This document shows positions 28,098 through 28,220 of a stretch of 64,000 bases of DNA, piece after piece. The number at the start of each line of letters is the position of its first letter. The first letter of the stretch is position 1. The notes beneath the pieces were generated by a model. That model searched no databases and was not told where the DNA came from. It was given only the letters and a program-made list of their open reading frames with translations. This DNA is from Eledone cirrhosa (lineage: Eukaryota): the NCBI GenBank assembly GCA_964016885.1, contig OZ024743.1, positions 192,820,001-192,884,000 of the forward strand, in the 5' to 3' direction. A program made the translations under genes and the position numbers.

Positions 28098-28220
28098 ATT
28101 ATTATTAAAGGATTTGAACATCTGAAACTACTTCGCTTTTCTTTATACGATATTTGCTCCGTCACTCCTATGTAGAAAAAGTACGTTGAGTGCTTGAGTT
28201 GAATTGCATCAATATTTACC

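Follow-up and report, generated by a model that had tools for sequence, protein, structure and literature searches.

Structured RNA that is bound by a reverse transcriptase (RT) fixes where copying starts or stops in the R2 3' UTR, in hepadnavirus epsilon and at the template-boundary stem of telomerase. In Penelope-like elements (PLEs), the sister group of telomerase, the choice of RNA, the optional tail and the inverted arms have been open questions for two decades. The passages that deal with the tail give it as optional and 30-40 bp long (PMC8557442; PMC3846280). For the Poseidon element PAc, the relevant sections of the published work report that in vitro the RT starts at two internal RNA sites bounding the tail, that both strands are extended by a predicted dimer, that hammerhead cutting is dispensable, and that the hammerhead was cut only with protein present (PMC11167929). 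A circular template is proposed in part of an earlier paper (PMC4209133).

We describe a pair of hairpins in the 5' leader of Hydra-clade PLEs and their non-coding partners. The motif studied here is the first of the two (H1), and full-length copies carry, in order, the hammerhead, H1, H2 and the ORF. Insertions characteristically end just 5' of H1, at a short end (S), or just 5' of H2, at a long end (L). H1 and H2 are each a candidate RNA site that probably positions the element's RT, with copying starting 4-9 bases 5' of the hairpin.

The window, which is the whole 64-kb stretch of Eledone cirrhosa DNA that was analysed (64,000 nt), had been annotated from its sequence in a first pass that listed nine places with the pattern ACTC-N-GAGTRC. 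Seven are intact (28164-28193, 41099-41120, 62483-62504 on the minus strand, 63193-63220, 17869-17910 on the minus strand, 32376-32404, and 58739-58764 on the minus strand). An eighth, 56307-56330 on the minus strand, is a mutated copy with GTGTAC in place of the motif, and its relatives have an intact hairpin with a hammerhead core upstream. The ninth, 20248-20293, was a misreading and is rejected as a motif: it forms the 3' portion of a SINE-like repeat, GAGTGC is lacking in both relatives whose alignment spans it, and the covariance model gives no match there. The hammerheads of that annotation are present, at about 28029, 40993, 62555-62612 (minus) and 63082. By eye they show both the CUGANGA and the GAAA core and have stems I and II; to judge from these letters they are minimal type I hammerheads with a palindromic minimal stem III. 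The features of the window are as follows.

28156..28194, plus strand: H1 hairpin of the headline copy, with the RCUC arm at 28156, upper stem, UU bulge and GAGU-GC-U; an alternative 5' arm lies at 28164.
28029..28096, plus strand: putative minimal type I hammerhead of family D, 5' of H1, from the sequence.
28195..28226, plus strand: remainder of the tail, which reaches the long end L at ~28224 and is succeeded by (TA)n; family D copies that read through extend 7 nt beyond the long end into H2.
26836..28226, no strand assigned: two-armed inverted insertion of family D (blastn against the 1322-bp repeat unit, L258); its left arm, which breaks the S/L rule, ends about 125 nt short of the hammerhead.
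40993..41179, plus strand: family B copy, with hammerhead 40993-41050, H1 41099-41121 and long end ~41179.
62421..62612, minus strand: family-B-related copy, with hammerhead 62555-62612, H1 62482-62504 and long end ~62421, which (AC)n adjoins, followed by (AT)n.
62855..63281, no strand assigned: inverted pair with one short-end (S) and one long-end (L) arm.
Left arm of that pair, minus strand: hammerhead 62901-62958, short end ~62855, just before H1.
Right arm of that pair, plus strand: hammerhead 63082-63139, H1 63193-63221, long end ~63281.
17798..17910, minus strand: insertion that consists of a tail alone, from H1 (17868-17910) to the long end.
32376..32476, plus strand: 5'-truncated copy, H1 32376-32405 with a 6-bp upper stem, tail to the long end.
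58692..58764, minus strand: H1 of the GAGU-AC type (58738-58764) with tail; relatives have the 3' half of a hammerhead-like fold upstream.
56410..56432, minus strand: H1 absent from the first-pass list (covariance model, sequence).
56307..56329, minus strand: mutated H1, with intact relatives that have a hammerhead core before them.
55610..55633, minus strand: H1 of the GCUC/GAGC-AC type, likewise absent from the first-pass list and outside the model training set (E 3.7e-6).
387..1607, plus strand: broken 3' part of a Hydra-clade RT-endonuclease, family C, with hammerhead 1543-1575 and short end ~1607; this copy has no H1, and its relatives have H1 about 7 nt further on.
29912..30352, plus strand: end of a Hydra-clade ORF, family E, with hammerhead-like core 30285-30312 and short end ~30352; relatives run on past the short end into an H1 variant.

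Two other features of the window were recorded. An apparently intact 1045-codon AP-endonuclease/RT LINE frame (3486-6623, minus), which we take to be CR1/L2-like, is accompanied by upstream open frames (6835-7725, minus), and an 8-kb array of mixed trinucleotide repeats at 45593-53928 contains very long open frames.

The abundance of the motif is not due to chance, since the pattern ACTCN{12,34}GAGTGCTT has 55,024 matches in the 3.0 Gb of the window's own genome and the reversed pattern 6,117. In an unselected sample of 40 stretches of 10 kb from this genome (400 kb in total), the loose pattern was found at 63 places, 28 of them with the bulged-stem form described below, which extrapolates to a genome copy number of ~2 x 10^5. 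Enrichment 3' of hammerheads, as the first-pass annotation had proposed, was borne out: a hammerhead core lies 30-110 nt upstream of 7/28 bulged-stem copies (background 0.5%), and none was found 30-110 nt downstream of any of the 63 loose matches. The remaining 21/28 show no upstream core by the pattern used, which counts against the RT-positioning reading. A (TA)n run lies 20-95 nt downstream in 23/28 (background 8.6%), and the 35 loose matches without a bulged stem had 0 hammerhead cores and four (TA)n runs. A protein-coding reading of the motif (Y/H-S ... V/I-E-C) was dropped because the spacer lengths do not keep frame. Separately, at loci L128 and L130 a repeat carries a well-formed ACTC...TA-GAGTGCTT. 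The sequence around it looks coding-like, and neither a hammerhead nor (TA)n lies near; this word is either chance or a captured copy.

The annotation had placed the motif in unrelated families, which was not supported by the protein diagnostics: the carriers are Hydra-clade PLEs and their partners. When copies were traced upstream, intact RT-endonuclease ORFs of 821 codons (family A) and 745 codons (family B) were reached, as was family C, that of the broken ORF at 387-1376 in the window. Judged by their residues, the carriers appear to have the Hydra-clade diagnostics save the third residue of RWK. DKG is replaced by DKT (SDKTNN in families A and B), and in the N-terminal RWK the RW is kept with T (family A) or R (family B) as third residue, most foreign relatives having RWK. 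The C-terminal endonuclease is of GIY-YIG type without CCHH, with a CxCx5C linker and with CxxC and CxH around a conserved E and N, an assignment that rests on motifs and alignment; Pfam gave no match for the carrier proteins at E 0.01. Two further Hydra traits, (TA)n insertion and a hammerhead in the terminal repeat, are present, and deposited Hydra proteins are similar by eye. Nematis was considered as the carrier clade and rejected, the protein diagnostics pointing to Hydra. RNA runs X1 and X2 contained 5% of the words and almost none of family A; X1 gave eight short pieces, none of them over the hairpins.

Family D, to which the headline copy belongs, is a 1322-bp repeat unit that occurs in tandem; no RT ORF was seen in this unit, and it retains both H1 and H2. 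A head-to-tail array of the unit was observed at L257-L259 (C1, about 130.88 Mb). The unit is a large retrozyme-like partner, with hammerhead, H1, H2 and a recurrent hydrophobic open frame of 90-108 codons.

The hairpin is not a signal of all PLE clades, to judge from Neptune-like loci. In a Neptune-like family of the same genome, the motif was absent from 14 loci, where the two model hits both fell in other nested insertions. This family (window 57798-58660; L121-L124) is a young PLE in which many 775-codon frames are still intact. Upstream lies a second, separate open frame that measures about 476 codons between stops. The family has a tail of roughly 40 nt, giving a short and a long end, and the hairpins that follow these ends are unrelated. 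Other abundant hammerhead families (window 30518, 31018 and 55922; L032-L034, L049, L145), among them a 311-bp tandem repeat on C1 near 1.24 Mb, had no H1 in the copies read.

The consensus of the hairpin is RCUC-[stem-loop]-UN-GAGY-RC-U, in which RCUC pairs with GAGY, a 2-base 3' bulge beginning with U leads to an upper stem and variable loop, and RC-U trails unpaired. The pairing extends beyond the ACTC/GAGT of the first-pass annotation, and the conserved core is broader, RCUC/UN-GAGY-RC. In the headline copy, GCTC at 28156 and not ACTC at 28164 is probably the homologous 5' arm, because only the former yields a 3-bp upper stem, a UU bulge and the usual short-end distance, and because a related family (L125) retains only the upstream ACTC. 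Against this register, the minimum-energy fold favours 28164. Family C departs from the consensus with a 1-nt H1 bulge and a degenerate H2, as read in a single full-length copy (L159). Standalone folding is weak in several window copies (z above -1.3 for 62481, 17867, 58739 and 56307).

Covariation was assessed in 95 foreign loci, which are metagenome or MAG contigs encoding relatives of the element's protein and are presumably mostly host-animal DNA. Copies were anchored on words alone, with pairing not required: 94 GAGYRC words lie 30-220 nt after a hammerhead-like core, 81 have RCTC upstream and 69 are distinct. The first upper pair after the 2-nt bulge is Watson-Crick in 67/69 distinct copies (40 C-G, 27 U-A). 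When bulges of 0, 1, 3 and 4 are assumed, the counts are 1, 1, 7 and 13 of 69. The first bulge base is U in 69/69. The outer pair is mostly G-C in foreign copies and mostly A-U in H1 copies of this genome; A-C occurs there in 3/69 foreign copies and G-U in none, which counts against the RT-positioning reading. In an alignment (A3) of 25 foreign copies with core length 22-24 (7/7, 12/12, 6/8) and four own copies, from which L162:262 and the near-duplicate at L187 were left out, the covariation score was 0.45, equalled in 0/500 shuffles; it was 0.32 on 126 copies, a set fitted to the model, and related sequences inflate both values. At upper pairs 2-3, G-U outnumbers A-C by 12 to 4 (p about 0.04), a weak lean towards folding of the sense strand.

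Matches to the covariance model were found in 71/95 foreign Hydra loci (E up to 1), among them 47 of the 71 loci from which no training sequence came. The motif word in most animals is GAGC, not GAGT. Four of the six Hydra consensus sequences of Craig et al. show the hairpin by eye in the material covered (PMC8557442): Hydra-2_Amil (coral) and Hydra-2_Ajap (sea cucumber) at the 3' end, Hydra-1_Ajap twice at the 5' start, and Hydra-1_Crog (sea louse) at both ends, one GCCC/GGGC and one mismatched. By eye it was not seen in Hydra-1_Amil, whose consensus ends shortly after the hammerhead, or clearly in Hydra-1_Obim. The hairpin is retained across at least four animal phyla; a search of viral contigs yielded no relatives. 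Several Hydra-PLE contigs (L239-L255) came from assemblies titled bacterial MAGs or symbionts and are probably host DNA contamination.

These comparisons bear on two alternatives. Plain homology within one repeat family, with no selection on the motif, would account for the related copies at 41098 and 62481 and for the placing of every ORF-linked carrier in one clade. It is extremely improbable, as flanks and spacers have diverged while core and pairing are retained: 41 foreign H1-H2 spacers fall into 34 clusters with a median pair score of 0.27, and the proteins are 33-38% identical to family B. The carriers are thus not one young family. The second alternative, a promoter or transcription-factor site in double-stranded DNA, had been among the options of the first-pass annotation. 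The 3' half of the motif is conserved in sequence, and its TTGAGTG resembles what we assume to be an NK-homeobox site. Moreover, PLE promoters sit in the pLTR, according to the portion of the source covered (PMC6765202). The motif nevertheless shows compensatory pairs across a loop of variable length, has GAGC instead of GAGT in most animals, and is tied in position to the insertion ends, which makes a promoter element very improbable. The annotation's broader suggestion, a second conserved cis-element of PLE terminal repeats, for instance a hairpin for RT binding or priming, fits the hairpin found, with the refinement that each element has two copies.

Many hammerhead copies end just before the motif, and 82/84 terminal ends lie at S or L, comprising 53/55 in ORF-selected loci of families A-C and 29/29 in family D, where a thirtieth locus, an internal junction, was left out. 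Inverted insertions have one S and one L end in 26/28 cases (17/19 in families A-C; 9/9 in family D, matched by hand from coordinates), p 1.5e-6 against a coin toss. Exceptions are L152, S+S, whose arms share the same flank and which is possibly a later duplication, and L157, S+other. Foreign two-copy loci (L165, L177, L184, L191, L195, L242, L244, L250) diverge 2-12 nt before H1 or H2; L200 is an exception, diverging 31 nt after H1. Loose ends into (TA)n occur at both end sites of family A in contigs of other runs (X3 and X5, a single sample from which the genome itself might come), and one contig of X7 shows the family A long end. The end-to-hairpin distance of 4-9 nt was read by eye; matches between AT-rich template and the TA target blur the positions, and alignment ends spread over about -13 to +3.

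H2 of family D was predicted before being seen and then found: RCTCY follows the L end at 71 places, 70 of them at exactly 7 nt (control 0), and the full hairpin is present in 12/12 loci read. The H1-to-H2 distance is 90, 90, 67 and 76 nt in families A, B, C and D, and among 44 foreign pairs it spans 53-83 nt. Of nine foreign elements whose start is clear and whose leader is long enough, seven have both hairpins and two have one (E up to 1). Because insertions end before H1 or H2, the optional PLE tail corresponds, in the Hydra clade, to the stretch between two hairpin-marked sites, one just 5' of H1 and the other just 5' of H2.

The hairpins might instead recruit protein for another step, such as folding or circularising of the hammerhead, packaging or translational repression of the ORF just downstream, with local sequence setting the ends. 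H1 lies 45-74 nt from the hammerhead in 45 cases (a second group of 23 lies at 110-143 nt), H2 ends 17-37 nt before the ATG in seven foreign elements, and the protein-dependent PAc hammerhead points the same way in the sections available (PMC11167929). We regard this as unlikely: the end-hairpin distance is tighter than that from hairpin to hammerhead or to ATG and holds for H1 and H2 alike although the end sequence varies among families, and family D keeps both hairpins without an RT ORF. Such recruitment is compatible with RT positioning, and the two are not exclusive.

Junctions with microsatellites bear on how the ends arise. Genome-wide, (TC)n directly adjoins the short end of family D at 172 places, compared with one at the long end, and TC is also the final templated dinucleotide at that short end. 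In 13/14 family D junctions read (L338-L349, L268, L280), 7-53 nt of (TC)n separate element and (TA)n, and the three visible partner arms of (TC)n junctions are flanked by (TA)n. Family C has single cases of (CT)n and (AC)n matching the last templated bases. These repeats suit stuttering at initiation, to judge from their letters. Host slippage may have lengthened the (TC)n runs, and a choice of compound targets is a possible source of them. By telomerase-like stuttering, the PLE RT may seed microsatellites.

A further alternative is that the hairpins act in DNA, S and L being resolution sites at which over-unit cDNA folds and the GIY-YIG endonuclease cuts nearby. Craig et al. attribute the tail to endonuclease-mediated resolution in the parts consulted (PMC8557442), and the portion covered of PMC11167929 cites a requirement of the D. 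virilis endonuclease for the tail in plasmid DNA; the fixed end-hairpin distance and the S/L asymmetry would also fit. Three points make it fairly unlikely: repeated copying at a start accounts for site-specific (TC)n between element and target better than cutting and joining, PAc initiates on RNA at each boundary of its tail (PMC11167929, in part), and the pair counts lean to G-U over A-C.

Positioning of the RT by the hairpins is thus the preferred reading, and that the ends are RT starts is suggested by their position and by analogy with PAc, whose in vitro data come from another clade with a different tail sequence. Under this model, two protein units would load on H1 and H2 and nick both strands of the (TA)n target; one cDNA would be primed at S and the other at L, and the two 5'-truncated cDNAs would join into an inverted insertion in which the tail (S to L, 67-90 nt, beginning with H1) is found on one arm only. 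H2 would not be copied into terminal ends. An L-ended copy with the ORF upstream would imply a template with the ORF 5' of H2, that is, a hammerhead-made circle or a tandem read-through, and since H2 is missing from terminal ends, the L-ended ORF copies (L142, L143, L145) would need such a template. Chances for this circular or tandem step are about even, because PAc in vitro dispensed with hammerhead cutting, though a circle had been proposed before. Somewhat short of even, and held tentatively, is the full twin-hairpin code, in which a protein pair on H1 and H2 of a hammerhead-made circle would prime both break ends from two fixed internal sites and yield the tail, inverted arms, partial tandems (by rolling round the circle) and new microsatellites.

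The predicted structure of the Hydra protein (pLDDT 88) has telomerase RT as its best structural match, from the first residue on: residues 1 to ~490 of the model align with telomerase RT from ~245 (Z 17, rmsd ~4). The aligned telomerase region presumably includes part of the RNA-binding domain. The likeness may be driven by the RT core, and the N-terminal 175 residues folded alone gave pLDDT 81 and pTM 0.48.

Rfam gave 0 matches at gathering score in 14 carrier loci and, in the window, none among the matches listed (150 of 590; E up to 5, microsatellites dominating). A description of the motif was not found in the open full-text literature searched. The hairpin pair is apparently an RNA element not described before, and it spans a clade of retrotransposons that is itself known. 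It provides a candidate recognition signal for the non-coding partners and, from genomic data, a case for templates that are circular or tandem, and if the hairpins set the RT start, as is likely, they would explain an end pattern that has long gone unexplained. A ~25-nt motif at a fixed distance from both ends allows exact mutations and spacing changes for testing. It can also serve as a short signature in searches for Hydra elements and their non-coding partners, and as a minimal RNA with which to study the structure of a telomerase-like RT.

Compared with the PLE tail in the passages covered (PMC8557442; PMC3846280), the Hydra-clade ends are alike in the one-sided extension of inverted ends and in inverted and partial-tandem insertions. 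They differ in tail length, 67-90 nt as against 30-40 bp, and in that both boundaries precede the same conserved hairpin, whereas those passages contain no hairpin signal and ascribe the tail to endonuclease resolution. The carriers are members of the Hydra clade of Craig et al. (2021) by its protein diagnostics, as far as that account was covered; its covered parts do not mention the hairpin pair, the word "hairpin" occurring 0 times in the main text (PMC8557442). Earlier work on PLE hammerheads, in the portions consulted, shares the type I hammerhead in the terminal repeat, the non-coding partners and the circular-template idea, but deals with the ribozyme only, the hairpin pair being absent.

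PAc (Frangieh et al. 2024) is alike, in the sections covered, in having two RT starts downstream of the hammerhead that bound the tail, an AT-rich target, extension of both strands and a predicted dimer; it differs in that copying begins within the ORF, at sites in an AC-rich stem-loop, and in that its binding motif was narrowed only to 172 nt, with no conserved motif or hairpin pair defined there (PMC11167929). In the PAc RNA as printed, no RCUC/GAGY-RC hairpin was seen by eye, and the PAc word GAAUGCUU as a homologue of GAGUGCUU was left unsupported. From the structured RNAs of R2, hepadnavirus epsilon and telomerase, the present signal differs in being duplicated, in lying 3' of internal starts in a 5' leader, and in marking two alternative ends.
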